A stretch of DNA of 64,000 nucleotides, taken from NCBI GenBank assembly GCA_963696385.1, contig CAVOKF010000006.1, positions 224,001 to 288,000 on the forward strand, given 5' to 3'. This document shows positions 7,257 through 37,435 of this stretch, in pieces (positions within the stretch are counted from its first letter, which is position 1; each line of letters begins with the position of its first letter). The position numbers and the translations under genes were made by a program. The notes under the pieces were generated by a model, which ran no database searches, had not been told where the DNA came from, and was given only the letters and a program-made list of their open reading frames with translations. Source of the DNA: an uncultured delta proteobacterium (GTDB lineage: Bacteria > Myxococcota_A > Polyangia > Polyangiales > Polyangiaceae).

Positions 7257-10200
7257 GCGACGTCGATCGACGCTTTCACGAGACCTGGCTTGGGATGGTG
7301 CAGCCCATCGACGGGCTCGTCGTCTCGATTCCGGTCCTCGTCGACGCGCAATGCGCCGAGCGACAGCCGCCGCACGTCCAGGCTCAACTCGTCGACCTCT
7401 GTCCGCCCACGCGCCAGGGCGAGAGCGGGCCCGAGGGTTACGCGATCGCGAACGTAGCTACGTTTCTCTCGACGCTTCTCGGCTACGCCGCCGACGCGTT
7501 CAACGCCGGCGACGCGCTCCCGGAAGCGCTCTCGCTCTACGTACCCGAGGGGCGGCAGACGTTGCGAGCGACGCTCGGCCTCAAGAAAGCCGTTGCACCC
7601 GCCCAAGCAGAAACCAGCGACGCGACGCCGGCCAGCCTCGCGGGAGCCGCCTACGCGATGCTCGTTTGGGAGATCCCCGCCAGCCTGGACCTCGACAAGC
7701 CCGAGACTGTGACCGGCTCGTGGGACTACCCGCCAGCGGCCAAGTTTGATCGCCTGCTTCGGCATGTCCGCGTTCCGATTGGCCTTTTGACGAACCGCGA
7801 TGCGGTGCGACTCGTCTACGCGCCCCACGGCGAATCGTCGGGCGCGATCACGTTTCGCGTCGACGACATGGCGAGCGTCGGGGGCCGACCGATTCTCGAC
7901 GCGTTCGTGATGCTGCTCGCCGCGAACCGCTTCTTCGGCGTGGCCGAAGAGCGAACGCTACCGGCCTTGCTCGCCGAAAGCCGCAAGCGTCAGGCGAACG
8001 TCACGAACGATCTGGCCGATCAAGTCTTCGAAGCTCTGCAGATCCTGCTGCGCGGCTTCGAGGCGGCCGCCGAGCGGGACGGCCGCGACCTGCTCGACGA
8101 CGCGCTCGCGCGCGAGGGCGACCACCTCTACCGCGGACTTCTCACCGTCCTTCTGCGTCTCGTGTTTGTCCTTTACGCGGAGGATCGGGGGCTTCTGCCG
8201 GTCGAGCACCCGATTTACGCCGAGCATCTGTCGGTCGTGAGTCTGTTCGAGCAGCTGCTCACCGACCGTGGCGCGTATCCCGACTCCATGTCGCGTCGCT
8301 TCGGAGCGTGGGGCCGCCTCGTCGCGCTCTTTCGCGCCGTGTTCCTGGGCGTGTCGCACGGGGATCTCCGCATGCCGCCGCGGCGTGGGTCGCTCTTCAA
8401 TCCCCACGAGTACCCGTTTCTCGAGGGCTGGGGGCCGGCTGGAAGTGCCCCGATCACGCAGGCCGAGGACCGCGCCGCCGTGAACATCCCGAGCGTCGAC
8501 GACGAAACGGTGTTTCACGTGCTCGAGAAGCTCCTCGTCTTCGAGGGGCAGCGCTTGTCGTACCGGGCGCTCGATGTGGAACAGATCGGCAGCATTTACG
8601 AGGCGCTGATGGGTTTTCATGTCCAGCGGATTCGGTCCGCAGCGGCATGCCTGAAGCCACAGCACCTGTGGGTAACGGCCGACGAAGTGAAGGAGGTCGA
8701 ATCGACGGGACGCGCGAAGTGGCTCCGGGAGACGGTCGGCCTCAACGCGGCGCAGAGTACGAAACTGGCCACGGAGCTCGAGAGCGTGACGGACACCGAA
8801 GGCGTGCTCGAAGTGCTCCGCCCGTGCGCGGCGGCGGGCAAGCAGGCCGATCCCTCGCTCTGCCGGGCACGATCTGGCCAACTTGTGCTTCAACCAGGTA
8901 GCGAGCGCCGACGCACGAGCTCGCACTATACGCCGCGGAGCCTCTCCGAACCCATCGTACGGCGGACCCTCGAGCCACTGCTTGTGGTGTTGGGCGACGC
9001 GCCCGCGTCCGAGCGGATTCTTGAGTCTCAACGTGTGCGACCCAGCGATGGGCTCGGGCGCATTTCTCGTCGAAGCTTGCCGCTTTTTGGGTGATCGCGT
9101 GCTCGCCGCATGGACGCGGGAGGACAAAGTCGAGGCGATCGCGGCGGCGCATGGCGACCTGCTTCTTCATGCACGCCGGCTCGTGGCGCAGCGTTGTCTT
9201 TACGGCGTCGACAAGAACGAAGCGGCCGTCGAGCTCGCAAAGCTGTCGCTCTGGCTTGTGACCCTGTCGAAAACGCTCCCGTTCACGTTTCTCGATCACT
9301 GTCTGAGACACGGAGATTCGCTCGTGGGCCTCGACCTCGAGCAGATCCGGACCTTTCACTGGACGCCCCCGGCGAAGGATCCGTCGAATCAGCTCCAGCT
9401 CTTCGGCCGTGAGATTGCGGTGGCGCTCGATGAGGCCATTCTGATCCGCCAGAAGATCGGAAGTCTGGGCGATTTGCCGATCGACGATCGCGAGAAGGCA
9501 CGACTGCTCTGGGACGCGCAGGACGCCCTCGACCGAGTGCGACTGATCGCCGACGTCATCGTCGGCGCGTTCTTTGCCCACGACAGGATCACGCCCCGCG
9601 AGGCGGAACGCGTGAAGAGAGAGGAGATCGTGAGAACCTGGCTCGCGGTAGGGGGCCCACCCACGGAGGAGCTTCTCGCGATGCAGCGCGAGATCCGAGA
9701 GCGCCTGCCGGTATTTCACTGGATGGTGGAGTTTCCGGAAGTTTTTCATGCCGGCAGACGGGCTCCCCTGGAAGAAAAGCAGGACCATCGACCCGCGCAT
9801 ATGGACGCCTTCGTCGGCAACCCGCCGTTTTTGGGCGGGAAGCGCACGTCAACCGAGCTCGGCAATCGGTACGCCGATTGGCTCAGCGCCATCTGGCGAA
9901 CTTCGAAAAATGCGGACCTGGTGAGTCGCTTCTTCTTGCGAGCGAACGACCTTCTCGGCGCGCATGGAACGATGGGGTTCATCGCGACGCACGCCATCGG
10001 GCAGGGAGAGACACGCCGTGACGGGTTGCAGCGACTGGTCGCTGCGGGACTTCAAATCTACGACGCGACTCGTTCGGTCCCATGGCCCGGGGAGGCCAAC
10101 GTCCAGGTCGCCACCGTCCACCTCGCGAAGGGAAATGCCCGGAGTGGGTGTACCCCGTTGCGGCTCGATGGCCAGGCCGTCGAGGCCGTCGACAGTCACC

Positions 10201-11336
10201 TTCGGGAGGGCACGGAGCGACACGACGCGCGGCCTCTCGGAAGCAACGGTCATCTGGCGTTCGTCGGAAATTTTCTTCGTGGTGAGGGCTTTGTTCTTTC
10301 GTCCGAGCGCGCACTCGAAATCCTTGAAGCAGCACCCCACGAGCGACGCGTCGTCCTCCCCTTCCTCGGCGGCGAGGAGGTGAATACGGACCCGGGTCAG
10401 TCGTTTCATCGCTACGTCGTGGACTTCACCGGCATGTCGGCCGAGCAGGCCGAGCGCGATTACCCGATGTCCTTCCGCCACATCCTGGAACATGTGAAGC
10501 CGTATCGGGAATCTCTTCAGGACCACGGTCAAGACAAGACGCACAAGTGGCGCTGGTGGCAGTTCGCAAACTCGCGTGAGGACATGCGCAAGGCCCTGAC
10601 CCCCCTCGAGCGGTGCATGGTCGCTGCACGCGTGACGACCCACCTCGCCGTTTCATTTCAGCCCGCGGGCCGGGTGTTCTCCGACCAGCTCGCGGTCTTC
10701 GCCTTTTCCCGGCTCACGGATCTGGCCATTCTGCAATCCAGAGTTCACGAAGTGTGGGCCCGCTCCTTGTCGTCGTCTCTCGGTGTCGCGCTGCGTTATT
10801 CGGTCTCCGATTGCTTCGAGACCTTCCCCTTCCCTAAGCCCGATCCGCGCACCATCATTCCTGCACTCGAAGACATCGGCCAGCGCTTGTATGACTTCCG
10901 CGCCAAGTACATGATCGACGAGAACGTCGGCCTAACGATCGCGTACAACCGACTCAAGGATCCCGCGTGCACCGACGCGCGCATTATCGAACTGCGGGCT
11001 CTTCACGAGGAAATGGACCGCAAAGTTCTCGAAGCGTATGCCGAAAGCGATCCGGAGGGCCGGTGGTTCGACGTGGAAGTTCCGCCTTTCTGCCCGATGA
11101 ACGACGGCGACAAGGCCAAGCTCGCTGCGTTCGAGGACGCCGTGATTGATCGCCTCTTCGTGCTCAACGCGAAGCGCGCCGAAGAGGAGAATCTGCGAGG
11201 GCTCGGCGCGACCGGCGGAAAGAAGAAAGGGCCCGCGAAGAAGGGCGCGAGTCGCGAGAACGGCGAGAAGAAACCGCGGCGGGCGAAGAAAGCCGAGAAG
11301 GACCAACTCAAACTGGGAGCGGACGAGGAACCCTAG
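7253..11336 (+). CDS. drmMI: DISARM class I-type N6-adenine DNA methyltransferase (DrmMI / Eco57I-like), split by a +1 frameshift near 9021
   Basis: ORFs 7235..9094 and 8883..11336 join as SHYTPRSL...ERILSLNVCDPAMGSGAFL (motif I) if one T is removed near 9021. Also LYGVDKN, VGNPPF (motif IV) and a C-terminal target-recognition region. Confidence 0.82.
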
Positions 11337-21525: not shown

Positions 21526-21573
21526 GCGTGGCAATCCTTGCGATCGCGTCGGCTCACCGGCTACGATTTCGCC

Positions 21574-22854
21574 ATGAGGATGGGCGGGGCAGGATGGAAA
21601 GCGATGATGCGGACGGTGACCGTCGCCGCGTCGGTCGTTTCCGTCGTGAATGGCTGCGGGGGCAGAACGCGGGACGGCGCGTCGAGATCCCCTGCGGCTC
21701 AGGCAACCAGTTCGACCGCTACCGCGAGCTTTTCCTCCAGCGAGACCCCTGGGACGGCGGTGCGGCCGCTTCGAGCCGCTCGAGCGCCTCCAGTTCGAAT
21801 CTCTTCGACCTCCGCGAGCGGTGCGTCGGATTTGGCGAACCTCCCGCCGAGTTGCCAGCCGGGTGGCCCGGGCATGACCAACTGCGGCCCGGCAGGAAGC
21901 GGCAACGAGAGCTGCTGCACCAGCCTGGAGGTTCCGGGTGGGACGTACTATCGAACGTACGACCCCGTCGATGAGGACGGGGGCGTGCTCCTTGCGGCCG
22001 ATGGCGGTGCGACGGGCTTAGCCGATCCGGCAACCGTGAGCGGATTTCGCCTGGACAAGTACCTCGTGACGGTCGGACGGTTCCGGCAGTACGTGAACTA
22101 TGTGACGAGCACCACCGGCGCCCCACCCGCCAACGGCAGCGGCATCCACACTCACTTGAATGGAGGCCTTGGCCTCGCCAACAGTGCGAGCCCGGGGACG
22201 TACGAGACCGGATGGGACGCGACGGATTGGGACGAGGACATCGAGACGGAGCCTAGCGAGGCGGGCACGTGGGATGAGTACCTGAGTTGCACCGCGAATA
22301 CGGTCCAACCAACCGACGACGGGACGTGGACGAGCACTCCGGGTGCCCAAGAAAACCTGCCAATCACCTGTGTCCTCTGGCAATGGGCGTACGCGTTCTG
22401 TATTTGGGACGGCGGCTTCTTGCCGAGCGAAGCGGAGTGGGGGTACGCGGCGGCTGCGGGAAATCAGCAGCGAGAGTACCCCTGGGGTTCGGCGGATCCC
22501 GGTACGGGCAACCAATATGCCATTCAAGACCTCTCGGCCTTTCCGACGGGTCTCGCGTCGGTGGGCATGGCGCCTCTGGGAGCCGCCTATTGGGGGCAGC
22601 TCGACATGGCTGGGGAAGTCGCCGAGTGGGTGCTCGATGCGCTTGCGGTTGTCGACGCGGGGCGTGGGGCCAGTGAGGGCGCTCCCTATTTCAACCCGTG
22701 CACCAATTGCGCCTATCTGGAAACTGGCCCCCTGTTTGGATTCCAGAGGACGCGGGGTGGCAGCGTCAGCTTGTTCTCCGCTGCACGCATTGACACGCCC
22801 CCGCCCAATGTCTCTCAACCGAGCATTGGCTTCCGGTGCGCGAGAACGCCGTGA
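21574..22854 (+). CDS. FGE/SUMF1 (C-type lectin fold) domain lipoprotein
   Basis: FRLDKYLVTVGRF, AYAFCIWDGGFLPSEAEW, REYPWG, DMAGEVAEW, GFRCAR. Confidence 0.88.
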   Translation: MRMGGAGWKAMMRTVTVAASVVSVVNGCGGRTRDGASRSPAAQATSSTATASFSSSETPGTAVRPLRAARAPPVRISSTSASGASDLANLPPSCQPGGPGMTNCGPAGSGNESCCTSLEVPGGTYYRTYDPVDEDGGVLLAADGGATGLADPATVSGFRLDKYLVTVGRFRQYVNYVTSTTGAPPANGSGIHTHLNGGLGLANSASPGTYETGWDATDWDEDIETEPSEAGTWDEYLSCTANTVQPTDDGTWTSTPGAQENLPITCVLWQWAYAFCIWDGGFLPSEAEWGYAAAAGNQQREYPWGSADPGTGNQYAIQDLSAFPTGLASVGMAPLGAAYWGQLDMAGEVAEWVLDALAVVDAGRGASEGAPYFNPCTNCAYLETGPLFGFQRTRGGSVSLFSAARIDTPPPNVSQPSIGFRCARTP

Positions 22855-24239
22855 CCGATCCCACCCACGCGGAGGGCGCGATCGTCGGGAGGGCGAAGCG
22901 GATCCTGGCGAAAAGAAAGCGGCGGATGCGTCTGCCGATGGCCGCGCTCGCGGTCCTTGGGGTCGTGGACGGGTGCGGCAGAAGCGCCCTGCTCGACGGC
23001 GACGCTCCGTACGACGTGGACGCCGGCGCCCCGCAGCAGGGCCTGAGCGCAACGGGCGCGACGATGAGCGGCCCCAGTGCCTCGGCTTCGAGCGGTGCGA
23101 GTGGCTCTGCGGGCGGTTCGTCGTCGAGCCACTCGGGCGCCAGCGCTTCGGCGTCGAGCGGTGCGAGTGGCTCCGCGGGCGCTTCGTCGTCGACGAGCAG
23201 CTCGGGCGCCAGCGCTTCCGCGTCGAGCTCAGCGAGTGTTTCCACGAGCAGTTCGTCCTCTTTGGCGAGCGGGCCGCCCAGTTGTCAGCCCGGTGGACCG
23301 GGCATGACCAACTGCGGCCCCGGCGGCCTGGGCAACGAGAGCTGCTGCACGAGCCTGGAGGTGACGCCCGGGTCGTACAACCGGACGTACACGAACCTCG
23401 GCAACGGTCCGACCGCCGAGGCCGACCCGGCGACGGTGAGCGGCTTTCGTTTGGACAAGTACCTCGTGACGGTCGGACGGTTCCGGCAATACGTGAACTA
23501 CCTGACGGGCGAGGCCGGTGCGCCCCCCGCCAACGGCAGCGGCATCCACACCTACCTGAACAGTAGCCAGGGGCTGTCGGACAGCCAGAGCCCAGGAACG
23601 TACGAAACGGGTTGGGACGCCGCGGACTGGAACATGGACATCGCCACCGGGCCGGGTGCGGCGAGCACGTGGGACGAGACCCTAGGGGGCTGCGGCAACG
23701 ACGGCATCACCAGCACGTGGACGAGCACGGCGGGTACTCAAGAGAGCCTGCCGATCGACTGCGTGTCCTGGGACCAGGCGTACGCGTTCTGCATTTGGGA
23801 CGGTGGCTTCTTGCCGAGCGAGGCGGAGTGGGGGTACACGGCGGCCGCGGGGAGCCAAGAGCGGGAGTACCCGTGGGGCTCGACGGATCCGGGGACGGCG
23901 AACCAGTATGCGATTACCAACTGCGATTACCCGAGCGGCTCCAGTGCGTGCGCGAGCCCAGCACAAGGCAACATCGCCCCCGTCGGAACGACGGCGCTCG
24001 GAGCGGGTTATTGGGGTCAGTTCGACCTCGCGGGGGAGGTCTGGGAATGGACGCTGGATTGGTTTGGGTCCTATGTCGATCCCTGCACCGATTGCGCTGC
24101 TCTGACGAACGTCGGCTTTCCTCGGGCCATCCGCGGAGGCGACTTTGCCCCGGGGACTGGTCTGCTGTTTCCCACCACCCGCAGCTACGCCTTCGGGAGC
24201 GACGGTGGCATTGGCTTCCGCTGCGCCCGGGCACCGTGA
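22851..24239 (+). CDS. FGE/SUMF1 domain lipoprotein (tandem paralog)
   Basis: Same motifs and a Ser/Ala/Gly linker. GTGA overlap with the upstream gene; alternative start ATG 22926. Confidence 0.88.
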   Translation: MTDPTHAEGAIVGRAKRILAKRKRRMRLPMAALAVLGVVDGCGRSALLDGDAPYDVDAGAPQQGLSATGATMSGPSASASSGASGSAGGSSSSHSGASASASSGASGSAGASSSTSSSGASASASSSASVSTSSSSSLASGPPSCQPGGPGMTNCGPGGLGNESCCTSLEVTPGSYNRTYTNLGNGPTAEADPATVSGFRLDKYLVTVGRFRQYVNYLTGEAGAPPANGSGIHTYLNSSQGLSDSQSPGTYETGWDAADWNMDIATGPGAASTWDETLGGCGNDGITSTWTSTAGTQESLPIDCVSWDQAYAFCIWDGGFLPSEAEWGYTAAAGSQEREYPWGSTDPGTANQYAITNCDYPSGSSACASPAQGNIAPVGTTALGAGYWGQFDLAGEVWEWTLDWFGSYVDPCTDCAALTNVGFPRAIRGGDFAPGTGLLFPTTRSYAFGSDGGIGFRCARAP

Positions 24240-27181: not shown

Positions 27182-28045
27182 TCAGTTTTTTGGGATGGGG
27201 TTTGCCCGGCAGACGCCCAGCATGACGTAGTAGTGCGGACTGAGAAGCGACGATTGCCGGGTCGGCTCGTCGATGGGGCGTATCTGCGCGCGAAACGACT
27301 CGCCGAGCCCGAGCAGGTGGCTCACGATCATCGTCGGCGCCTTGTTGATCCGGTCCATGAGCGTAAACCAATGGTGGTTTCCGCGGCCATACTGAATCTT
27401 GGACGTCCAGTATCGCATGGGCAGGTCGCCGAGCGGCTTGAGCTGCAACGACAGTTCGCGTCGTTGCCCGAAAAGGTGCACTTGGGAGAAGTGCCGCGCC
27501 AACAGGCTCTGGAACTCCGCGCGCGTGAATTCGAGCTCGTGGTAGTCGCTGACGAAGGGACCGCCGACGTTGAGCGGGGTGGAGACGAGAAACGTGCCGC
27601 CCGGCTTGAGGGTCCTCCTGCATTCGCGGACGAATTGCTCCGGGTCCCTGAGGTGCTCGATGGTCTCGAACGAGATGACCACGTCGAACTCCGCATCGAA
27701 CGGCAAGGCGTAGGCGTCGCCACGGACCCAGCGAAGGCCGTCGGCGCCGTAGCGCTGGGCCGCATAGTCGAGCGCGGCCTGCTCCCGGTCGACGGCCACG
27801 ACCTCGCTGGCTCCCTGCTTACGGACGATGTGAGCGCCGTAGCCCGTTCCCGTGGCCACGTCGAGCACGCGCTTTCGCTGGCAGTACTTGGAGGCAAAGC
27901 GATAGCGCGCAAGGTGGTCTCTCATGAGCCACCCGTAGTGAACGTCCTCGACCACGCGTTCGCCCCCGAGGCCCGGCGACCAGGTCTCCAATTCGGCGGG
28001 TCGGAAGGCCTCGGATACGCCCGTCTCGACGATGGCGTTTTGCAT
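27182..28045 (-). CDS. Class I SAM-dependent methyltransferase
   Basis: HLARYRFA, RVLDVATGTGYG, FDVVISFETIEHL, LKPGGTFLVSTP. Divergent from the biosynthetic operon. Confidence 0.9.
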   Translation of the reverse strand: MQNAIVETGVSEAFRPAELETWSPGLGGERVVEDVHYGWLMRDHLARYRFASKYCQRKRVLDVATGTGYGAHIVRKQGASEVVAVDREQAALDYAAQRYGADGLRWVRGDAYALPFDAEFDVVISFETIEHLRDPEQFVRECRRTLKPGGTFLVSTPLNVGGPFVSDYHELEFTRAEFQSLLARHFSQVHLFGQRRELSLQLKPLGDLPMRYWTSKIQYGRGNHHWFTLMDRINKAPTMIVSHLLGLGESFRAQIRPIDEPTRQSSLLSPHYYVMLGVCRANPIPKN

Positions 28046-28311
28046 GTCGGTCCTCTCTTTGCGGTGACGACGCGGCTCGGGTGAAAACTAATCTTCGTGG
28101 CGACGAAAAGGGGCTGACCCCGGCCCGTAGAATCGACAGGACCGTGATCGGCTCACGCCCCAGGCCGCGCGACCATCGCCCATCCTCCGAAGAAAGTCCA
28201 TTTCATGGCATTTCAAATGGGCAGAGTGGGGGGGGAAGAAGCCGTGGTGTGTAATCGAATGAAATTATCGAAATGTGGACCTCGGCCAACCGGGCTCTAT
28301 ACTCGCTTTGC

Positions 28312-29454
28312 GTGGACCTGACGCCGTCTCAAAAAGAGCGCGTGAATGCGACACTGAAATTCGCGGGGACGCGCCTCGCGCCGGGCGCTCGCGAGCGTGA
28401 GGCGCGGGGGGTCTTCGATCGCCGCCTTTGGGACGAGGCGGCGGACTTCGGCCTCGCCGGTCTACCCATTCCCGAACGGTGGGGCGGCAGCGGCCTCGAT
28501 GCGGTCGATACGATGTTGACCGTGGAGGCGCTCGGAAAGGCTTGCGACGACGGAGGGCTCGTTTTTTCCCTTTGTGCCCATATGTTTGCGTCGGCGGTCC
28601 CCCTCTGGCGATCCGGGTCGGCGCCGCACCTCGAGCGGTATCTGGCCGACCTGGCCGCGGGAAAGGTGATTTGTGCCAACGGGACGACCGAGCCCGAAGC
28701 CGGTTCGGACGTTTACGCGATGAAGACTTCCGCCAAACGGGTCGGCGACGACTACGTGCTGAACGGCACCAAGTGCTTCATCACCAACGCACCGGTGGCC
28801 GATCTCTTTCTCATTTACGCGACGACGAATCCCGCGAGGGGCGTGCTCGGGATTTCTGCATTCGTCATCCCGCGGGATACTCCCGGTCTTCGCGTCGCGC
28901 CGGAGGGGCCCAAGACCGGCCTACGAACGTCGCCCTGGGGCACGGTGTACCTCGACGAGTGCCGCGTGCCGGTGAGCTCGCGAGTCGGCCCGGAGGGATG
29001 CGGCGCGTCGCTCTTCGGCGAGTCGATGATCTGGGAACGGGCCTGTCTGTTCGCGTACTACGTCGGGGCGATGGAACGTTCGCTCGAACGGTGCCTCGAC
29101 CACGTTCGATCGCGGCGCCAATTCGGTCAGCGCATTGGCTCCTTTCAATCGGTGTCCAACCGAATCGTCGATATGAAGCTCAGGCTCGAGGTCGGGCGTC
29201 TGCTCCTGTATCGCGCCGGACAGCTGCACCGGACGGGCAGGCGATGCGACGAGGCCGTCGCGCTCAGCAAGCTCTGGATCTCGGAGGCGGCGCTTCAGTC
29301 CGGCCTCGACGCGGTGCACGTTTTCGGGGGATCCGGCGTCGTCACCGATACCGGCGTCGATGCGTTGATGCGAGACGCCGTGCCGGCGCGAATTTTTTCG
29401 GGGAGCTCGGAAATGCAAAAAGCCGTGATCGCGCGAATGATGGGGTTGTCCTGA
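28312..29454 (+). CDS. Acyl-CoA dehydrogenase family, likely L-prolyl-carrier-protein dehydrogenase (PltE/RedW-like)
   Basis: FSLCAHMFA, TEPEAGSD, LNGTKCFITNAP, R.QFGQ.IGSFQSVSNRIVDMK, IFSGSSEMQK. Adjacent to a Pro-type A domain and PCP. Alternative start 28273. Confidence 0.85.
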   Translation: MDLTPSQKERVNATLKFAGTRLAPGAREREARGVFDRRLWDEAADFGLAGLPIPERWGGSGLDAVDTMLTVEALGKACDDGGLVFSLCAHMFASAVPLWRSGSAPHLERYLADLAAGKVICANGTTEPEAGSDVYAMKTSAKRVGDDYVLNGTKCFITNAPVADLFLIYATTNPARGVLGISAFVIPRDTPGLRVAPEGPKTGLRTSPWGTVYLDECRVPVSSRVGPEGCGASLFGESMIWERACLFAYYVGAMERSLERCLDHVRSRRQFGQRIGSFQSVSNRIVDMKLRLEVGRLLLYRAGQLHRTGRRCDEAVALSKLWISEAALQSGLDAVHVFGGSGVVTDTGVDALMRDAVPARIFSGSSEMQKAVIARMMGLS

Positions 29455-31046
29455 TGGGCCTCGAGCGGTGCGTGACCCCATGGGCCGAACGCGAGCCTAG
29501 CCGGATCGCCGTCGACGGACCCGACGAGGCGCTCACGTACCCGGAGCTCGACCGGCTCGCGAATCGCTTTGCGCGCGTGCTCCGAGCGATGGGCGTCGGC
29601 CCGGGCGACCGCGTAGGCATTCACGCGCACCGGTCGGCACGAACCGTCGCCGCGATGCTGGGCACACTGCGGGCGGGGGGAGTCTACGTACCGCTCGATC
29701 CCGGCTCTCCGCCGGCTCGACTGGGCCTCATCGTCCAGGACTGTGGCTTGGCCACCGTCGTGGTTTCGCCGCCGCTTTTTGGCCACTGGCACGCGGCGGG
29801 GGTCTCTGGATCGATTGAGCACTTCGTCCTGACGGGCCCGAGTGAGGCTCGCGCCGCCGACCTCGCGCCCATCCACGTCCATCCGTGGTCGGAGGTCGAG
29901 GCGGCCGCGGGCGCACCGATCGAGTCGCCGGGCCGATTGCCCGACGACTTGGCCTATGTGCTTTACACGTCGGGGTCGACCGGCATTCCCAAAGGCGTCA
30001 TGCTCTCGCACGGCAACGCCGCCGCCTTCGTCGATTGGGCTGCCGACGCAATCGGGCTTCGCGAGGGCGACCGCGTGGCCAGCGTCGCCCCCTTCCATTT
30101 CGATCTGTCGGTGTTCGACGTTTGGGCCACGCTGTCGCGCGGTGCAACGATGGTGGTGGTCGACGAGGCCACCGTCATGTCCGGCCGCCGCATGCTGGAC
30201 CGAATCCACGCGAAGAGCATCCAGGTTTGGTACTCGGTCCCGTCGGCGCTCATTCTGATGCTCGAGACGGGGGGGTTGGCCGAGCGCGGGGCACCGTCTC
30301 TACGGTCGATCTTCTTCGCCGGCGAAGTATTTCCGATGAAGCACCTGCGCAAGGTCATGGCGGCGCTGCCGCACGTCTGCTTTTTCAATCTGTTCGGGCC
30401 CACCGAGACGAACGTGTGTCTGGCCTACGAGGTGCCGGGCCCGCCGGCTCTGGACGCGGGGGCGATCCCCATCGGACGCGCGAGCTGCGGCAACGTCATC
30501 TCGATCGTCGACCCCGAAGGCAAGGAGGTCCCCGACGGCCACGTGGGGGAGCTGCTCGTGGACGGTCCCACCGTGATGGTCGGGTATTGGGACGGGGGTC
30601 GCCGCACGCCGGCGCGGCGCCCGTACCCCACCGGCGACATGGTGTCGCGGCGGCCGGACGGAGAGATCCTGTACCACGGTCGTCGGGATCACATGGTCAA
30701 GATCCACGGCTTTCGAGTCGAGCTCGGCGAGGTGGAGTCGGCGCTCTATGCCCATCCGGCGATCCACGAAGCCATCGCATTGGCCGTCGACCAACAGCTC
30801 GTGGCCGTCGCCGTGCCCTCCGACCCGGCGCTGTCCGTGCTCGAGGTCAAACGCCACTGTGCCGACCGCCTGCCGCGCTACATGATCCCGTCGGACGTCC
30901 GCCTCGTCGAAGGGTTGCCGCGGACATCCAACGGCAAGGTCGACCGCGTCCGCACCCGCGAGGCCATGCTGGCCGGAGACGGTTCGATCCTCAAGCCGCT
31001 GCGACGAGTCGAACCGCGAAAGGAGACCGAGTGGAAGCGCGCGTGA
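29454..31046 (+). CDS. Stand-alone adenylation enzyme, probably L-proline-activating (PltF/RedM-like)
   Basis: YTSGSTGIPKG, PFHFDLSVFD, WYSVPS, FAGEVFP, NLFGPTETNVC, TGD, NGKVDR. The specificity code read by eye is about DLFYFALVCK. Confidence 0.85.
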   Translation: MGLERCVTPWAEREPSRIAVDGPDEALTYPELDRLANRFARVLRAMGVGPGDRVGIHAHRSARTVAAMLGTLRAGGVYVPLDPGSPPARLGLIVQDCGLATVVVSPPLFGHWHAAGVSGSIEHFVLTGPSEARAADLAPIHVHPWSEVEAAAGAPIESPGRLPDDLAYVLYTSGSTGIPKGVMLSHGNAAAFVDWAADAIGLREGDRVASVAPFHFDLSVFDVWATLSRGATMVVVDEATVMSGRRMLDRIHAKSIQVWYSVPSALILMLETGGLAERGAPSLRSIFFAGEVFPMKHLRKVMAALPHVCFFNLFGPTETNVCLAYEVPGPPALDAGAIPIGRASCGNVISIVDPEGKEVPDGHVGELLVDGPTVMVGYWDGGRRTPARRPYPTGDMVSRRPDGEILYHGRRDHMVKIHGFRVELGEVESALYAHPAIHEAIALAVDQQLVAVAVPSDPALSVLEVKRHCADRLPRYMIPSDVRLVEGLPRTSNGKVDRVRTREAMLAGDGSILKPLRRVEPRKETEWKRA

Positions 31047-31306
31047 AGGCCGACGTCCTGCAGTTCATCGTCAGCTCCTGGCTGAGCGGCGACGAGCGAG
31101 GTTTCGACGAACAAACCGATCTGCAGCAAGCCGGCATTTTGGACTCCTTTTCGATGCTCTCTCTCGTCGCATTCTTGGAGGACACCTTTCGGATTCGCCT
31201 CGATCCGGCCGACGTGAACGCGGAGACGTTTCGGACCGTCGACTCGGTCGCTCGACTCGTCGTCCAGAGGCTCGGCACGAGCGGCGCCGGCGGCGCCATC
31301 GATTAG
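31031..31306 (+). CDS. Peptidyl carrier protein (PltL/RedO-like)
   Basis: GILDSFSMLSLVAFLE..F; AGGAG ribosome-binding site before GTG 31031. Confidence 0.85.
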   Translation: MEARVKADVLQFIVSSWLSGDERGFDEQTDLQQAGILDSFSMLSLVAFLEDTFRIRLDPADVNAETFRTVDSVARLVVQRLGTSGAGGAID

Positions 31307-31356
31307 CCATTCATTGCGGGATGCACGCTCGGTCGTGCGTGAGGAGCGAAAGCACC

Positions 31357-31629
31357 ATGGAAGAGACTCTCAGAACCATCATCGCAAAAATCGTGGAGAC
31401 CGCACCGGACTTCGATGGGGACGCGGATCTTCGAAATGATCTCGACCTGGATTCGCATCGTGCCGTCGAGTTGGTCTTCGAAATCGAGCGTGCGTTCGAT
31501 GTACGGGTGCCCGACGACGGCTTCGCGCAAATGCGCACGTTGAACAAGACGGTGCGTTTGGTCGAGCGACTGAAAGGCGCACCGGCCGCGCCGTCCGATT
31601 CGGGGACCGTGTGCAAAGACGCGTCGTGA
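31357..31629 (+). CDS. Acyl carrier protein
   Basis: DLDLDSHRAVELVFEIERAFDV; GAGGAG upstream. Confidence 0.85.
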   Translation: MEETLRTIIAKIVETAPDFDGDADLRNDLDLDSHRAVELVFEIERAFDVRVPDDGFAQMRTLNKTVRLVERLKGAPAAPSDSGTVCKDAS

Positions 31630-32831
31630 TCACCGGCTGTGGGGTGGTGACGGCCGCGGGCAACGATCTGTCGTCGTTCTGGGGCGCGCTTTTGAGCGGC
31701 ACGTGCTTCATCGGACCCCTGAAGCACTTTTCGGCGCCCGGGATCGAGCCCATCCTGGGCGCAGAAGTCGAACTCGACGCACGCGACGGCCTTCCTGCCG
31801 AGGTCGACACAGACGTCCGCCGGAGCCGAGCCGGTCACCTGGCTTTGGCCGCCACCCGTCGCGCCCTCAACGACGCCGCGTTGCGGCCCAGCGCCGACGA
31901 TCTCGAGCGCACGGGGCTCGCCCTCGGCACGACGCTCGGCGAAGAGCGTCAGGTCGGAGACCTGAGCGAGCGATGGGTCGGAAGCGGACCGAGCAGCGTC
32001 GACTCTGGGTTTTATCTCCGCAGCGACAACCACCATCTCGCGAGCCTCGTCGCGGCCCAATGGGGGCTGGGTGGCTCGGTCCAACTCTGCGCCGCGGCAT
32101 GCAGCTCCGGCAACGCCTCGATCGCGTCGGCTTACGATCTCATCTCATCGGGCGCGGCCGACACCATGATCGCCGGTGGGGTCGATGCCTTGACCCGCTC
32201 CATTTACTGCGGATTCCAGCGGATGGGCGCTTTGTCCAAGGGCATCTGTCGCCCCTTCGACCGGCGCCGAGACGGAGTCTCGTTCGGCGAGGGGGCTGGG
32301 ATGGTCGTGCTGGAGGAGCTCGAACAGGCCACCCGCCGGGGGGCACGCATTTACGCGGAGGTGGCTGGGTACGGAATGAGCAACGATGCCCATCATGTGA
32401 CCGCACCGGATCCGAGCGGCGACGGCTTCGCGCGCGCGATGACGCAGGCGTTGTCGAGCACCGGCCTGTCGCCGGCCTCGATCGACTACGTCAGCGCTCA
32501 CGGGACGGGCACGCCGTACAACGATCGGGCCGAGATTCGGGCCATGAAGACGGTATTCGGCGAGTGCGGCAAGCCCGTTCCGATGAGCTCGATCAAATCG
32601 ATGATTGGTCACACCAACGGAGCCGCCAGCGCGATCGAGGCGGTCGCTTGCGCCCTGGCGCTGACGCGCCAAGCCGTGCCGCCGACCGCCAACCTCACCG
32701 AGCCCGACCCCGACTGCGACTGGGATTGCGTCCCCGGCAAAGGGCGAGAGGCTCGGGTCGACCGCTGCCTCAATCTCGCCGCCGGATTTGGCGGTTTCAA
32801 TGTCTGTGTGGTTCTGACGAGGTTCGCGTGA
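31611..32831 (+). CDS. Type II ketosynthase (KS-alpha / FabF-like)
   Basis: Intact Cys-His-His triad: AACSSGN, HGTGT, KSMIGHT; also FGGFN. Confidence 0.92.
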   Translation: MQRRVVITGCGVVTAAGNDLSSFWGALLSGTCFIGPLKHFSAPGIEPILGAEVELDARDGLPAEVDTDVRRSRAGHLALAATRRALNDAALRPSADDLERTGLALGTTLGEERQVGDLSERWVGSGPSSVDSGFYLRSDNHHLASLVAAQWGLGGSVQLCAAACSSGNASIASAYDLISSGAADTMIAGGVDALTRSIYCGFQRMGALSKGICRPFDRRRDGVSFGEGAGMVVLEELEQATRRGARIYAEVAGYGMSNDAHHVTAPDPSGDGFARAMTQALSSTGLSPASIDYVSAHGTGTPYNDRAEIRAMKTVFGECGKPVPMSSIKSMIGHTNGAASAIEAVACALALTRQAVPPTANLTEPDPDCDWDCVPGKGREARVDRCLNLAAGFGGFNVCVVLTRFA

Positions 32832-34045
32832 CGCCCCTTGCCGGCGGCCCTGCCGCTCAGCCGATCGCGATCACCGGGGTGGGCCTCATCACGCCGCTCG
32901 GCGACGATCTCGATAAAGTGGGCGAAGCTCTGTGTTCGGGCCGACGGGCCGTCGTGGCCTCTGCCGACATCGCCGGGGCCGGCGAAGCGCACATCCCGGA
33001 CTTCGACTCGGCTCGCTACGCCACCATCCGCGGGATGCGTATGTACAATCGGACGACCCGCCTCGGCATTTGCGCCGCCCAGTTGGCACTCGTCGACGCC
33101 GCGGTGGAGGGCGAATCGTGCCCGGGTGAGCAGCTCGGCGTCGTGACGGCCTCGACCTCGGGCCATCTCGGAACGCTCATCGAATACGATCGCAGTTTGG
33201 TGGCGGTAGGTTTGCAGCGAACCAATCCCGCGTGGATGCCTTTGGCCATTCCGAGCGCCCCCGGCGCCATGATTGCCCTGTCGTTCGGAGCCAAAGCCTT
33301 CTCGATGACACTGAGCCAGGGTGCGGCTTCGTCCCTCGACGCGCTCGGGCTCGGAATGCGCTTCATCGAATCGCGGCGGGCGCGCGCGTGCGTGGTCGTG
33401 GGAGCTTTCTCCCCCTGCGCCGAGATTTCGCTGGCTGCGTCGCGAGCCGGCATGTTCGCGCCGGCTGGAGAGTTTCGCGTCTTCGATCGCCGGAGCCGCG
33501 GAACCGCGTTTGGAGAAGGGGCTGCCGCCGTGGTCCTCGAGCGGCTCGACGACTGCCACCATCGCGGGACTACGCCCAGGGCCGTTCTGCGCGGATACGG
33601 CTCTGCGTTTGCGACCCGCCCGTCGGAAATCACCTCGGCCCTCGCACGCGCAGCCGGCGCTGCCCTGCGAACGGCAAAGCTCGGACCGGCCGACATCCGC
33701 CTGGTCAGCTCGGGCGCCAACGGCTTGCCGGAGCGCGATCGATCGGAAGCGAGGGCGTTGGTCGCTCTGCTCGGAGACGCGGCGGCGCAGCCACCCGTGG
33801 TCGCGGCAAAGGCCAGCCTTGCCGAGTGCGTCGACGCGAGCGGCCTGCTGCAGACGCTCGTGGCGCTTTTCGCGCTCCGATCCGGCGCCGTCCCTCCGAT
33901 TCCGGACCTCGACGAGCCCGAGGTACCCGGTCTGCGGTACGCGCGGCCGCACATGACGGTCGACGACGGGCACGCGCTCGCAACCGCTGTCTCCAGCACG
34001 GGCGCGTGTTCGGCGCTCGTCCTTTCGGCGCGCCATGCCGCTTGA
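32828..34045 (+). CDS. Chain-length-factor-like non-catalytic ketosynthase (KS-beta)
   Basis: KS fold (ITGVGLITPLG, GEGAAAVVLE) but the catalytic positions read QGAASS, GANG and LAEC. Confidence 0.85.
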   Translation: MTPLAGGPAAQPIAITGVGLITPLGDDLDKVGEALCSGRRAVVASADIAGAGEAHIPDFDSARYATIRGMRMYNRTTRLGICAAQLALVDAAVEGESCPGEQLGVVTASTSGHLGTLIEYDRSLVAVGLQRTNPAWMPLAIPSAPGAMIALSFGAKAFSMTLSQGAASSLDALGLGMRFIESRRARACVVVGAFSPCAEISLAASRAGMFAPAGEFRVFDRRSRGTAFGEGAAAVVLERLDDCHHRGTTPRAVLRGYGSAFATRPSEITSALARAAGAALRTAKLGPADIRLVSSGANGLPERDRSEARALVALLGDAAAQPPVVAAKASLAECVDASGLLQTLVALFALRSGAVPPIPDLDEPEVPGLRYARPHMTVDDGHALATAVSSTGACSALVLSARHAA

Positions 34046-34793
34046 CGAGTCCAGCGCCAGGCGACCCGTGGCCATCGTGACGGGCGGATCGCGCGGCATC
34101 GGGAGGGCCATCGTCGAACGGCTCGCCCATGCGGGGTTCGACGTTCACTTCACGTTCTTGAACAACGAGCAGGCAGCCCGTGAGGTGATCGAGCCCATCC
34201 GCGCCGCCGGTCAAAGCGCGCGAGCGCTCCGGGTCGATTCCCGCGACGTCGCGGCGTGCGCCGCCCTGGTCGAGAAGACCCTCGCGGAGTGCGGACGTCT
34301 CGACGTCCTCGTCAACAATGCCGGTGTGACTGCCGATCGCCTCTTGCCGATGATGAGCCAGGCCGATTGGTCGGGCGTTCTCGACACGAGCCTCAATGGC
34401 CTCTTCGGGGCCACCAAGCCCGCCGCAAAACACATGATGCGCCAGCGCGCGGGACGGATCATCAATCTGACCTCCGTCTCCGGGTTGATCGGCATAGCCG
34501 GGCAGACCAACTACAGCGCTGCCAAAGCGGCCATCGTCGGCTTCACGAGGTCGCTCGCGAAGGAGCTTGCCCCCCGCGGCGTTTGCGTGAACGCCGTGGC
34601 TCCAGGCTTCGTCGACACCGACATGGTGGCTGCGCTTTCCCCGGCCCAGCGGGTGGCCGCGGTCGGACGAGTTCCCATGGGCCGCTTCGGCACCGCCGAC
34701 GAGGTCGCCGCCGTCGTCGCTTATCTTGCGGTGCAAGCGCCCCCCTATCTCACCGGCCAAGTTCTGGTGATTGATGGAGGTCTGGCCGCATGA
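34035..34793 (+). CDS. fabG: 3-oxoacyl-ACP reductase (ketoreductase)
   Basis: TGGSRGIG, LVNNAG, YSAAK, VAPGFVDT. Confidence 0.9.
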   Translation: MPLDESSARRPVAIVTGGSRGIGRAIVERLAHAGFDVHFTFLNNEQAAREVIEPIRAAGQSARALRVDSRDVAACAALVEKTLAECGRLDVLVNNAGVTADRLLPMMSQADWSGVLDTSLNGLFGATKPAAKHMMRQRAGRIINLTSVSGLIGIAGQTNYSAAKAAIVGFTRSLAKELAPRGVCVNAVAPGFVDTDMVAALSPAQRVAAVGRVPMGRFGTADEVAAVVAYLAVQAPPYLTGQVLVIDGGLAA

Positions 34794-35503
34794 CCGTCGG
34801 GAGCGTCAGGAGGCCGAGAAGCGGCCGACGCCCACCCCCGCCCAGGAGGGTCTCCAGGGGGCGCGCGGAGCACCCCACCCTCGACATGTCCCGTTCGATC
34901 CACCACGAGGCCCCCATGATGACTTGGCAACCGGGGCAAATGCCCTCACCGATTTCGGTCCTGAGCCAGGGCTTGTTCGCTCGAGTGCGCGACGTGGCGA
35001 GTCGCTTTAGGGTCGCCTACCAGTTTCGAGATTGCACGCGCGTCGGTCCACGCCCCGATGTCCTTGGGCGCCTCTGGGTCCACGGCGGCGGGCGGGTCGT
35101 ATTCGGCCAGCGGGTCCGGTTGGACGCGAGTTGCGCCCCGATCGAGATCCATTCGTTCGCGGGTGCGGAAATCGAGTTGGGCGACGACGTGGTCATCCAG
35201 GGCGGGGCGTCCATCGAAGCCATGCGATCGATCCGCATCGGTGCGGGCTGCCGGGTCGGAATGCATTGCAAGATCATCGACGGTCACTTCCACGCCATGG
35301 ACGGGCATCGGGGCGGTCTCGTCCCGGCCGGTCAAGTGGTCCTCGAGGCGGGGGTCGTCCTCGCGCCGAACAGCATCGTCGTCGCCGGTCACTTGGGCGA
35401 GGCCACGGTCGTCGCCGCACGGGCGGTCGTCACCCGTCGAGTGCGCCCCAACGCGGTGATCCGCGGCTTCCCCGCGACGACCGAATCCCGAAGGAGGCCG
35501 TGA
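34790..35503 (+). CDS. Hexapeptide-repeat (left-handed beta-helix) acyltransferase
   Basis: IELGDDVVI, IRIGAGCRVG, IIDGHFH, GFPA. The true start may be downstream, near 34917-34940. Confidence 0.75.
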   Translation: MTVGSVRRPRSGRRPPPPRRVSRGRAEHPTLDMSRSIHHEAPMMTWQPGQMPSPISVLSQGLFARVRDVASRFRVAYQFRDCTRVGPRPDVLGRLWVHGGGRVVFGQRVRLDASCAPIEIHSFAGAEIELGDDVVIQGGASIEAMRSIRIGAGCRVGMHCKIIDGHFHAMDGHRGGLVPAGQVVLEAGVVLAPNSIVVAGHLGEATVVAARAVVTRRVRPNAVIRGFPATTESRRRP

Positions 35504-36105
35504 TGCCGACGGCGAGTGCGCGAGTCCTGTTCGCCGAAGCGAGAGAGCTTTACCGTCTCATCTTCGCGGACGGCAGGGCGCCGTTGGACAAAGTTCAACG
35601 CGCGATTGGGGTGGCTCGAGCCAGCCTTCTTTTTCGACAGGTCGAGCACGGCGTTCGGGTCAACGCCACGGGCTACGTGCGGGTCGTCGCGCGCGGACGG
35701 ATCCAACTCGGGGATCAGGTGCAGTTCTTCGGCGGCATGGTTCCGACACGGGTCGTCTGTCAGGTCGGCGGAGAACTCCGGATCGACTCGCTCAGCGGCT
35801 TCAACTACGGTGTATCGATCGAATGCGCGCAGCGGATTCACATCGGCAAGCGGTGCATGTTCGGGTCCATGAGCTCTGTCCGGGATCGGTCTGAAGACCG
35901 AAGCGGACCTGTCGTCATCGAAGACGACGTGTGGGTCGCGCACGGTGCCATGATTGAACCGGGGATACGCGTCGGCGCCGGCTCGGTCGTTGCCGCGGGC
36001 TCTGTCGTGTTCGCGGACGTTCCCCCGCATTCGCTTGCCCTGGGCAACCCCGCGAAGTGCGTTGGGATGGACTTGCTCCGCAGCGTCATGCCGGCCGGTT
36101 CTTGA
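35503..36105 (+). CDS. Hexapeptide-repeat acyltransferase
   Basis: PVVIEDDVWVAHGAMIEPGIRVGAGSVVAAGSVV..DVPPHSLALGNPA; AAGGAGG ribosome-binding site. Confidence 0.85.
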   Translation: MPTASARVLFAEARELYRLIFADGRAPLDKVQRAIGVARASLLFRQVEHGVRVNATGYVRVVARGRIQLGDQVQFFGGMVPTRVVCQVGGELRIDSLSGFNYGVSIECAQRIHIGKRCMFGSMSSVRDRSEDRSGPVVIEDDVWVAHGAMIEPGIRVGAGSVVAAGSVVFADVPPHSLALGNPAKCVGMDLLRSVMPAGS

Positions 36106-36172
36106 CCGCCGGCCTGTCCCGCGCGCCGTCCTCAGCCCGATTCCTGTCCAAAGGGTCGGGATTCCTTCCGGC

Positions 36173-37210
36173 CTACGGCTGGGCTACGGCGCTGGTCGGA
36201 TCGGCAATGCTCAGCAGTTGCTTGCCCTGGTTTTGCCCGGCGAAGAGCCGCGCGACCACCGCCGGCGCGTTCTCCAAACCGCGCTGCACGTCGACGCGGT
36301 CTTTGAGTTTGCCCTCCAGCAGCCACTGCCTCAGCTGCGCGATGGCTTCGGGGGCGCGGTCCAGATAGTCGATCACGACGAACCCCTCCATCCGGCCGCG
36401 CTGCACGAGGAGCCTCAGGTAGTTCCTGGGCCCCGTCATACCGGTGACGTCGTTGTAGCTGGACATGGCGCCGCAGACCACGACCCGCCCATGAAGTGCG
36501 AGATGCGCGAGAGCGGCGTCGAGGATTCGCCCCCCGACATTGTCGAAATAGATATCGATGCCGTCCGGACACGTTTGCCGCAGACGGGTCATGACGTTTT
36601 CCGATTTGTAGTCGATGGCGGCGTCGAAGCCGAGTTCCGTCGTGAGCCAGGCGCATTTGTCGGGGCCTCCCGCGATGCCGATCGCTCTGCAGCCTTTTGC
36701 CTTCGCGATTTGACCGACCACCGATCCCGTCGCTCCCGCTGCCGCGGAGACGACCACCGTCTCTCCGGGCCGCGGGCGGCCCACATCGAGCAAACCAAAA
36801 TACGCGGTCATGCCGGTATTGCCGAGCGCGCTGAGGGCGCTCTCGACGGATACCCCCCGGGGTACGGGCAGGATGGGATAGAGGTCGTCTTCACGGGCCG
36901 CGCAGTATTCTTGCCAACCAAAAAGACCCTGCACCCGATCCCCAATGCGGTATTTGGCAATGTTGGATGCGATCACCTCGCCGACGGCGAACGAGCGCAT
37001 CACGTCGCCCATTTTCACGGCCGGCCAATAGGTGTCGCCGGCCATCCAGCCCCGCTGGGTGGGGTCGCAGGAAAGGCAGAGATTGCGCACCAGGATCTCT
37101 CCCTCGGCCGGCTCTCCGATCTCGCCCTCGTTCCACCGAAAGTCGGCGGCACGGATGAGACCTTGGGGACGCCGCACGAGAAGCCACTGATGGTTGGTCC
37201 GAAGCTGCAT
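36173..37210 (-). CDS. NADP-dependent oxidoreductase (MDR family, prostaglandin reductase/CurA-like)
   Basis: SCDPTQRGWM, GMTAYFGL, VSAAAGATGSVVGQIAK, DIYFDNVGG. Confidence 0.9.
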   Translation of the reverse strand: MQLRTNHQWLLVRRPQGLIRAADFRWNEGEIGEPAEGEILVRNLCLSCDPTQRGWMAGDTYWPAVKMGDVMRSFAVGEVIASNIAKYRIGDRVQGLFGWQEYCAAREDDLYPILPVPRGVSVESALSALGNTGMTAYFGLLDVGRPRPGETVVVSAAAGATGSVVGQIAKAKGCRAIGIAGGPDKCAWLTTELGFDAAIDYKSENVMTRLRQTCPDGIDIYFDNVGGRILDAALAHLALHGRVVVCGAMSSYNDVTGMTGPRNYLRLLVQRGRMEGFVVIDYLDRAPEAIAQLRQWLLEGKLKDRVDVQRGLENAPAVVARLFAGQNQGKQLLSIADPTSAVAQP

Positions 37211-37278
37211 CGGGGCCTCCTCCGTCGCGGCCGGAACGGTACACGAGCTCGCGGATCGCTGTCACCCGAGGGCGCCCG

Positions 37279-37435
<157 letters not shown>

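Follow-up and report, generated by a model that had tools for sequence, protein, structure and literature searches.

Several described systems resemble the locus presented here, each in part. In the aminocoumarin pathways (CloN1-7/CouN1-7) a pyrrolyl group on a peptidyl carrier protein (PCP) is passed to a second carrier and then to a sugar hydroxyl, with no extension and no ketoreductase (KR), and the transfer enzymes are a ketosynthase (KS) III-like protein and an alpha/beta-hydrolase. In the MBC branch of prodigiosin biosynthesis, as described in PMC11188435, an adenylation (A) enzyme, a PCP and a dehydrogenase produce pyrrolyl-S-PCP, and a KS condenses it once with malonyl-bound acyl carrier protein (ACP). 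The definition of highly reducing type II polyketide synthases (PKSs) given in PMC10698177 includes a dehydratase, while the anammox pair reported in a preprint (bioRxiv 10.64898/2026.05.19.726425) consists of an active FabF-like KS and a full-length paralogue with a dead catalytic triad. Here we analyse a stretch of 64,000 nucleotides (the window) from an uncultured delta proteobacterium of the Polyangiaceae (contig CAVOKF010000006.1, positions 224,001 to 288,000), in which a run of nine genes very probably represents a conserved, pyrrolyl-primed, dehydratase-free type II cassette built around a KS and a chain-length-factor-like partner (CLF).

An earlier note on this DNA had listed nine plus-strand genes between positions 28273 and 36105 together with a divergent methyltransferase, and all of them are present (Table 1). 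Their tight spacing is confirmed as well: six of the eight junctions overlap and the other gaps are 50 and 92 nt, or seven junctions overlap if the longer start of the first beta-helix (LbH) gene is used. GC content of the cassette is similar to that of its flanks. Searches with KS or CLF gave 63 cassette loci, of which 10 were dropped as duplicates (95% or higher), leaving 53; L016, a further near-copy of the sibling locus, was left out of the locus set. In 25 unique loci the DNA upstream of the CLF extends for 4.7 kb or more, and every one of them has the dehydrogenase, A enzyme, PCP, ACP and KS, so the pyrrole trio and the KS-CLF genes are co-conserved and the cassette is not a chance assembly. 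In L075 the ACP is situated upstream on the other strand. Of 42 loci, 38 have the KR inside the cassette. The methyltransferase was found in only one of 19 loci, that of the close sibling, and we have ruled it out as a core gene. The core is present at least twice in each of two genomes, G062 (L127, L128, L165) and G051 (L131, L169, L170); the A gene seems to be split in two in L127 and the KR match lies in two pieces in L166.

The distribution of the cassette is patchy. Of 401 genomes from the order, 11 have the CLF clade, and the same 11 genomes hold the dehydrogenases of at least 68% identity, 17 more genomes having only relatives of 42-52%. G010, which is marked as unpublished, enters only as a counted row lacking the cassette. 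In a phylum-wide draw the clade was found in two of 401 genomes, one of them the source genome. Among 8000 candidates 182 proteins matched the CLF profile at E 1e-60 or better, and the few that are named by organism come from uncultured bins. Neither clade, CLF or KS, was found in plasmid records, where the 748 CLF and 494 KS matches were all below 60% identity, and the three plasmid dehydrogenase matches examined belong to prodiginine-type clusters. Methylocystis iwaonis and Thioclava sp. carry such clusters (L163, L164) on plasmids. A phosphopantetheinyl transferase adjoins the cassette in eight loci; the source genome has one, located elsewhere.

Table 1. Genes of the cassette and its immediate neighbours, in window coordinates
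Feature	Position	Strand	Basis or remark
L-prolyl-PCP dehydrogenase (PigA/RedW type)	28273..29454	+	NCBIfam prodigi_MBC_PigA; 5zw0
Stand-alone A enzyme, proline type	29454..31046	+	6o6e; pocket code
PCP, putative prolyl/pyrrolyl carrier	31031..31306	+	PP-binding; LDS motif
ACP, putative extension carrier	31357..31629	+	PP-binding and ACP models; DS motif
KS, intact Cys-His-His	31611..32831	+	motifs; own clade; 9s5h_B
CLF-like inactive KS paralogue	32828..34045	+	triad replaced; own clade; 9s5h_C
KR, FabG-like short-chain dehydrogenase/reductase (SDR)	34035..34793	+	family models; inside cassette in 38/42 loci
LbH1, predicted beta-helix acyltransferase subunit, loop His136	34886..35503	+	start possibly 34790
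LbH2, beta-helix subunit without loop His	35503..36105	+	natural LbH1-LbH2 and LbH2-ACP fusions
NADPH-dependent ene (alkenal/enone) reductase, CurA/PGR family	36173..37210	-	candidate trans-acting enoyl reductase
Class I S-adenosylmethionine (SAM) methyltransferase	27182..28045	-	lineage-specific neighbour, probably not core

The proposal that a pyrrolyl group primes the system is supported, at the level of sequence, by a dehydrogenase that passes the PigA cut-off, a proline-type A enzyme and an adjacent carrier. The dehydrogenase scores 561 bits on the NCBIfam PigA equivalog (cut-off 500), does not pass the RedW model (434, cut-off 650) and is 59% identical to a prodigiosin-type PigA homologue. 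Its best solved relative is 5zw0 (E 1e-113), followed by the prolyl-ACP dehydrogenase 4irn (8e-94). For the A enzyme the best solved relative is 6o6e, an L-proline--[carrier] ligase (E 1e-119), and the pocket code DLFYFALVCK, read with a position scheme which we take to be applicable, is found in 28 of 32 rows with eight of its ten residues equal to those of 6o6e. The LDS motif with the phosphopantetheine serine is kept in all 38 PCP rows (24-27% identity to PigG homologues) and the DS motif in all 41 ACP rows, and close paralogues of the dehydrogenase and of the A enzyme are absent from the source genome. Pyrrole-2-carbonyl-S-PCP, judged by homology only, is the likely starter. It is known that the anatoxin dehydrogenase stops at pyrroline, and a non-aromatic starter could arise in that way or through loading of another imino acid by the A enzyme. 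In favour of such a starter, 4irn ranks second and the pocket differs from 6o6e at two of ten positions; against it, the PigA cut-off is passed, the identity to the PigA homologue has the value given above, and 5zw0 stands above 4irn. We consider it very improbable.

The predicted route to pyrrolyl-S-PCP is shared with the MBC branch (PigI/PigG/PigA/PigJ/PigH; RedM/O/W/X/N), and from there on the two differ. The cassette KS is free and has a separate CLF, matches only a part of PigJ homologues (28-38%) and scores 110 bits on the PigJ model, whose cut-off is 900; no oxoamine synthase family was seen among the neighbours scanned, and KR, ene-reductase and LbH genes are found instead. Membership of a prodiginine cluster was therefore rejected, the cassette having no KS of the PigJ/RedX kind and, among the neighbours scanned, no oxoamine synthase of the PigH/RedN kind.

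The KS is a free-standing protein of 406 amino acids with an intact triad (Cys164/His297/His334), and none of the 46 KS rows has lost any of the three motifs. At the triad positions of the CLF there are Ala166, Gly296 and Glu333, hence it is an inactive paralogue, and the description of a dissociated KS-CLF as a separate active KS with a triad-dead partner gene holds. The predicted CLF has a thiolase/FabF fold (Z 47, root mean square deviation 3.0, 369 residues aligned). A quick tree, built from 55 rows, places the KSs of the cassette in one clade (support 100) and the CLFs in another (99), and the branch nearest to them is a KS/CLF pair present across the order (support 93, unstarred, on the KS side and 100 on the CLF side). 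In the source genome this order-wide pair of KS and inactive KS lies at G000:C8:46106-52879 (L171), next to three carrier proteins and genes similar to fatty acyl-AMP ligases and oxoamine synthases (no cut-off passed); its product may be a sphingolipid-like or other amino-lipid. A further KS locus of the same genome (G000:C8:200983-205336) encodes a 757-aa KS protein, split KS-like open reading frames (ORFs) and a long ACP-bearing ORF, and relatives with open frames of about 750-880 aa recur across the genus.

The suggested likeness to aryl polyene KS-CLFs was not supported. Of the highly reducing systems the tree took in ApeO and ApeR, which fall elsewhere in it, on long branches flagged as unsure, and the cassette KS is 31-34% identical to them. 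For both KS and CLF the best solved match is PDB 9S5H (KS to 9s5h_B, E 1.5e-100; CLF to 9s5h_C). From sequence correspondence 9S5H and 9S5I appear to be the anammox amxFabF2/amxFabFmut heterodimer: the available text of the preprint names no PDB code, and the residues cited in it fit the chains at 14 of 15 positions for the KS and three of three for the CLF, which is why 9S5H is read as that pair. Foldseek and VIA searches with the KS and CLF models, both of which have low-confidence interface loops, returned generic FabF folds with 9S5H not listed. According to what the preprint gives, the anammox pair differs from ours in its hydrophobic tunnel, in belonging to a ladderane cluster and in having no pyrrole starter.

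Two polar residues of the KS, Glu112 and Asn336, do not vary among the 46 rows. Asn336 aligns with Met337 of the anammox KS tunnel and Glu112 with a neighbouring position, while Ile/Leu141 of the CLF aligns with the anammox Val139, which the preprint places close to the C8 of the substrate. Such a polar pocket would fit a pyrrole N-H and few rounds of extension, and we slightly favour a short chain as the product.

It is known that CloN2 of the aminocoumarin pathway shuttles pyrrole-2-carbonyl between carriers. By analogy the KS-CLF could merely move this group from PCP to ACP with no extension, so that pyrrole-2-carboxylate would go to a sugar. The cassette is similar to the aminocoumarin set in its predicted pyrrolyl-PCP, its second carrier and the proposed transfer to a sugar hydroxyl, and further parallels are alpha/beta-hydrolases in L023 and L074 and a B12-binding radical-SAM gene, perhaps a C-methyltransferase acting on pyrrole, which in L077 is placed inside the operon after the KR and before the reductase (L077:11948-13726); three full-length loci, moreover, have no adjacent KR. 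Still, the cassette differs from it by its KS-CLF, KR and LbH genes. Both decarboxylation histidines are retained in every KS row, the dedicated KR is nearly always there and KR orthologues occur elsewhere in the genomes with no adjacent one, and a malonyl-type acyltransferase adjoins L082, all of which make a mere shuttle quite improbable.

The absence of a dehydratase and of a thioesterase, which had also been claimed, was confirmed for genes of the hotdog type. Queries with FabZ, ApeI, ApeP and ApeK gave no match in the window or in the 63 loci, and the same hotdog queries did match FabZ and a thioesterase elsewhere in the source genome, whose sole FabZ is on another contig. No dehydratase family was seen among the scanned neighbours of the loci. 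With highly reducing type II PKSs (ishigamide Iga, aryl polyene Ape) the cassette has in common KS-CLF, ACP, KR and a predicted non-acetate starter, but since no dehydratase was found in the window or the 63 loci it lacks one of their defining features. Membership of an aryl polyene cluster, which has a KS set of the ApeO/ApeC/ApeR type, was rejected on the basis of the tree, in which the KS lies outside the ApeO/ApeR branch, of the identities, and of the fact that no ApeI/P or ApeK-type genes were seen in the window or the 63 loci and no Ape-type export genes among the neighbours scanned.

Immediately downstream the ene-reductase converges on the operon; it lies inside the earlier coordinates and was not named in the earlier text. 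Of 19 loci, 13 have an ene-reductase next to the cassette; it takes four different positions, on either strand and up- or downstream of the core, and an orthologue is present in each of the 11 genomes with the cassette. G062 and G107 have their KR away from the core, with KR, LbH and ene-reductase found together elsewhere. Eight of the solo reductases of the genus form a starred clade excluding the window copy in a tree of 30 rows. We also considered that some solo reductase genes are split and rejected this, reading the flagged single in-frame stops as natural ends, since each open frame has the full length of its match. The chances are even that the ene-reductase is a trans-acting enoyl reductase; alternatively, it may scavenge reactive pyrrolyl-acryloyl species. 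Two products had been proposed, a pyrrolyl-(hydroxy)acyl group and a pyrrolyl polyene; the presence of the reductase suggests an acyl group that is short and reduced rather than a polyene.

How water would be lost is a related question. A 3-hydroxy group beside a pyrrole ring should eliminate water readily, and the loss may be spontaneous, may depend on a borrowed FabZ or may follow acetylation of the hydroxyl by LbH. Serine O-acetyltransferases acetylate a beta-hydroxy acid, and the operon LbH of many loci is closest to models of these enzymes, below the cut-off. LbH could thus replace the dehydratase by O-acetylating the 3-hydroxyacyl-ACP with acetyl-CoA, after which acetate would be eliminated and the ene-reductase would finish the step, the acceptor being set by other genes. 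In agreement with this, LbH usually comes directly after KR, KR and LbH move together inside L018, and KR, LbH and reductase make one block in G062 and G107. However, LbH also follows CLF with no adjacent KR (L127, L129), half of the loci have no adjacent LbH, the window pair comes from ACP-fused polysaccharide modules, and pyrrolyl carbinols readily lose water in any case. We regard this replacement as unlikely.

The loop histidine of LbH O-acyltransferases of the maltose/galactoside/WcaF type is catalytic. That of LbH1 aligns with the histidine of maltose transacetylase and is kept in nine of nine rows, while LbH2 and nearly all of its close relatives have none; among LbH2 relatives the pattern matched in 92 of 120, and D-x-x-F-H is kept in the distant and not in the close group (four chance His calls). 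Neither protein passed an NCBIfam cut-off. Both of the LbH genes that had been described as acyltransferases are present, but they look like a His-bearing and a His-less subunit and not like two enzymes. In P0282 the two are naturally fused, its first half being 50% identical to LbH1 and its second half 60% to LbH2, and fusion with an ACP is seen in several relatives of LbH2. A complex of two LbH2 and one LbH1 was predicted with a score of 0.78 (best control 0.01), with runs agreeing in at least 69% of contacts and a partner pLDDT of at least 81; the mark used for such scores is reached by 116 of 157 solved pairs and by two of 215 mismatched ones. Likeness to solved LbH trimers may explain this pass.

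LbH genes occur in 17 of 35 loci against a background of 2-3%. In other lineages an EpsC/CysE-like LbH replaces the pair, and 11 such operon copies group in the tree with two paralogues from the same loci (93/93, unstarred). The exopolysaccharide locus of the source genome has a His-bearing LbH-ACP fusion next to a His-less LbH-FkbH fusion. This Wzx/Wzy-type locus (G000:C3:about 743000-800000; L147-L149), in which the LbH-FkbH protein has 794 aa and the LbH-ACP protein 272 aa, also encodes an EpsC-like LbH and two OafA-type acyltransferases. In other genomes an LbH2 relative adjoins NadE- and AsnB-like genes in four of five cases, and in three of the five the ligase/ACP set is complete and accompanied by EpsV- or EpsZ-like genes; L157, L158, L159 and L160 show LbH2 relatives or LbH1-LbH2 fusions beside a cassette of NadE-like, asparagine-synthase-like, ligase and ACP genes. 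We suggest that this ligase/AsnB/NadE cassette is a second ACP-loading module sharing the beta-helix pair, and that the window pair derives from ACP-linked exopolysaccharide modules. Those modules (FkbH/ACP/LbH and ligase/ACP/AsnB/NadE/LbH) have the same His-bearing/His-less pair and lie in Wzx/Wzy-type loci; in the cassette, by contrast, a heteroaryl acyl group extended by the PKS would serve as donor. The literature search found no paper in which the chemistry of the FkbH- or ligase-type modules is established.

The neighbourhoods point in a similar direction. Among the 23 unique loci whose flank reaches 8 kb or more, nine have GT2/WecG/Wza/Wzc/WcaJ-type genes, and seven have at least one of the WecG, Wza, Wzc and WcaJ types, compared to 4.2-6.5% (with GT2) and 0.9-1.5% (without GT2) of random 12-20 kb windows of the source genome, a control in which the markers omitted Wzc. 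One of the neighbour scans behind these counts took in 72 of the 142 neighbours listed. The nine marked loci make eight groups at 75% CLF identity. In L092 a GT2-LbH fusion follows KR. The link of the neighbourhood to glycans that was part of the earlier claim of LbH transfer is therefore supported, while a glycan as the acceptor, for which the chances are evenly divided, goes beyond it.

On these grounds we propose, with a probability somewhat below even, that a short pyrrolyl-acyl group is built on the ACP and then transferred to a surface polysaccharide. The product and the substrates are predicted from sequence and context. The A enzyme would load L-proline on the PCP and the dehydrogenase would oxidise it to pyrrole-2-carbonyl-S-PCP, for which homology is a strong argument; the KS-CLF heterodimer would take the pyrrolyl group on Cys164 and condense it with malonyl-ACP, as anatomy strongly suggests. 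KR would then give 3-hydroxy-3-(pyrrol-2-yl)propanoyl-ACP, water would leave spontaneously from the pyrrolyl carbinol or with the help of housekeeping FabZ, and the acryloyl thioester formed in this way could be saturated by the ene-reductase. We expect between one and about three rounds of extension. Finally, an LbH1/LbH2 hetero-trimer would take the acyl group off the ACP and attach it to a hydroxyl on a sugar building block of the exopolysaccharide, a step which in other lineages might be carried out by an EpsC-like LbH or a hydrolase pair. More tentatively still, one can imagine a dehydratase-free branch, duplicated from the order-wide lipid KS-CLF pair, which decorates exopolysaccharide with a polyketide-extended pyrrole by feeding a modular ACP-to-glycan His-bearing/His-less hetero-trimer, the same transfer system being fed by FkbH or ligase/AsnB cassettes in other lineages.

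Several observations weigh against transfer to a polysaccharide. No polysaccharide marker is found in the flanks of 14 of 23 loci and no LbH adjoins the cassette in 18 of 35. The loci are kin, and a single genome provides the background of the enrichment. The window copy is on a different contig from the exopolysaccharide locus of the source genome, with only two GT4 genes at 5 and 12 kb beyond the operon. Nonribosomal peptide synthetase (NRPS) genes, with adenylation (A), thiolation (T), thioesterase (TE) and in one case condensation (C) domains, are present in three loci (A-T-TE in L022 and L111, C-A-T-TE in L025), which suggests that these loci make an amino-acid conjugate. As for the reductase, it is absent beside the cassette in six of 19 loci, cluster-borne copies do not form one supported clade (14% of bootstrap trees), and homologues of 60-64% identity occur in nine of 26 other genomes of the genus. 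Mapping of the pocket, furthermore, is a sequence alignment and not a heterodimer model.

Part of this evidence would suit a diffusible or membrane small molecule, such as a pyrrolyl polyene pigment or a pyrrolyl-alkanoate ester or amide, with LbH, hydrolase and NRPS genes as interchangeable means of release onto small acceptors. Release genes do vary, with the NRPS types just mentioned and a double hydrolase in L023 and L074, and both the patchy spread in the order and the many loci lacking a nearby glycan marker agree with such a product. On the other hand, no dehydratase or ApeK-type thioesterase was found in any locus, the neighbours scanned include no MMPL/Lol-type export set, unlike the aryl polyene cluster, and the double hydrolase is closest to exosortase-system hydrolase models, below the cut-off. 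We therefore hold a small molecule to be rather unlikely, and transfer of a short pyrrolyl-acyl group to a surface polysaccharide is still the reading that we prefer.

The cassette points to a second, reducing kind of myxobacterial type II PKS with a heteroaryl starter. Myxobacterial type II PKSs with aromatic products are described in PMC13213394 and PMC13454183, whose main texts do not mention pyrroles; in the main text of PMC13213394 the terms pyrrol, proline and polyene are absent, and in that of PMC12664062 the term pyrrol. Full-text literature gave no cluster with the gene set of the cassette, in a search that covered few subscription papers and lay outside MIBiG. The cassette is compact enough to be rebuilt in vitro, and it opens the questions of how a KS-CLF selects a pyrrolyl starter (with Glu112 and Asn336 invariant), how a reducing type II system operates with no dehydratase, and what cargo the beta-helix/ACP modules of exopolysaccharide loci carry. 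If the proposal is true, the surface would carry an unusual modification, a glycan acylated with pyrrole, and one may speculate on roles in adhesion, redox protection and avoidance of phage and predators.

A promoter and terminator scan of the stretch gave chance level only and an Rfam search of it no match. Eight RNA runs contained small shares of the stretch, and one contig of run X4 (5.8 kb, from a relative about 93% alike) spans the dehydrogenase to the start of KR; such contigs cannot show transcription, strand or level, and this one was not used as evidence. Between the reductase and the next gene the hexamer CCCCGA is repeated about 27 times in an array (window 37275-37434). Farther away, at 3804-11336, an SNF2 helicase, an unassigned 613-aa ORF and an Eco57I/MmeI-type methylase stand in a row, which we take to be probably a DISARM- or BREX-like defence locus, and apparent transposase fragments follow this row to about 16 kb of the window. 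Several tandem proteins with formylglycine-generating-enzyme domains and Ser/Gly-rich linkers are encoded at 21538-24239 and 61099-62145.

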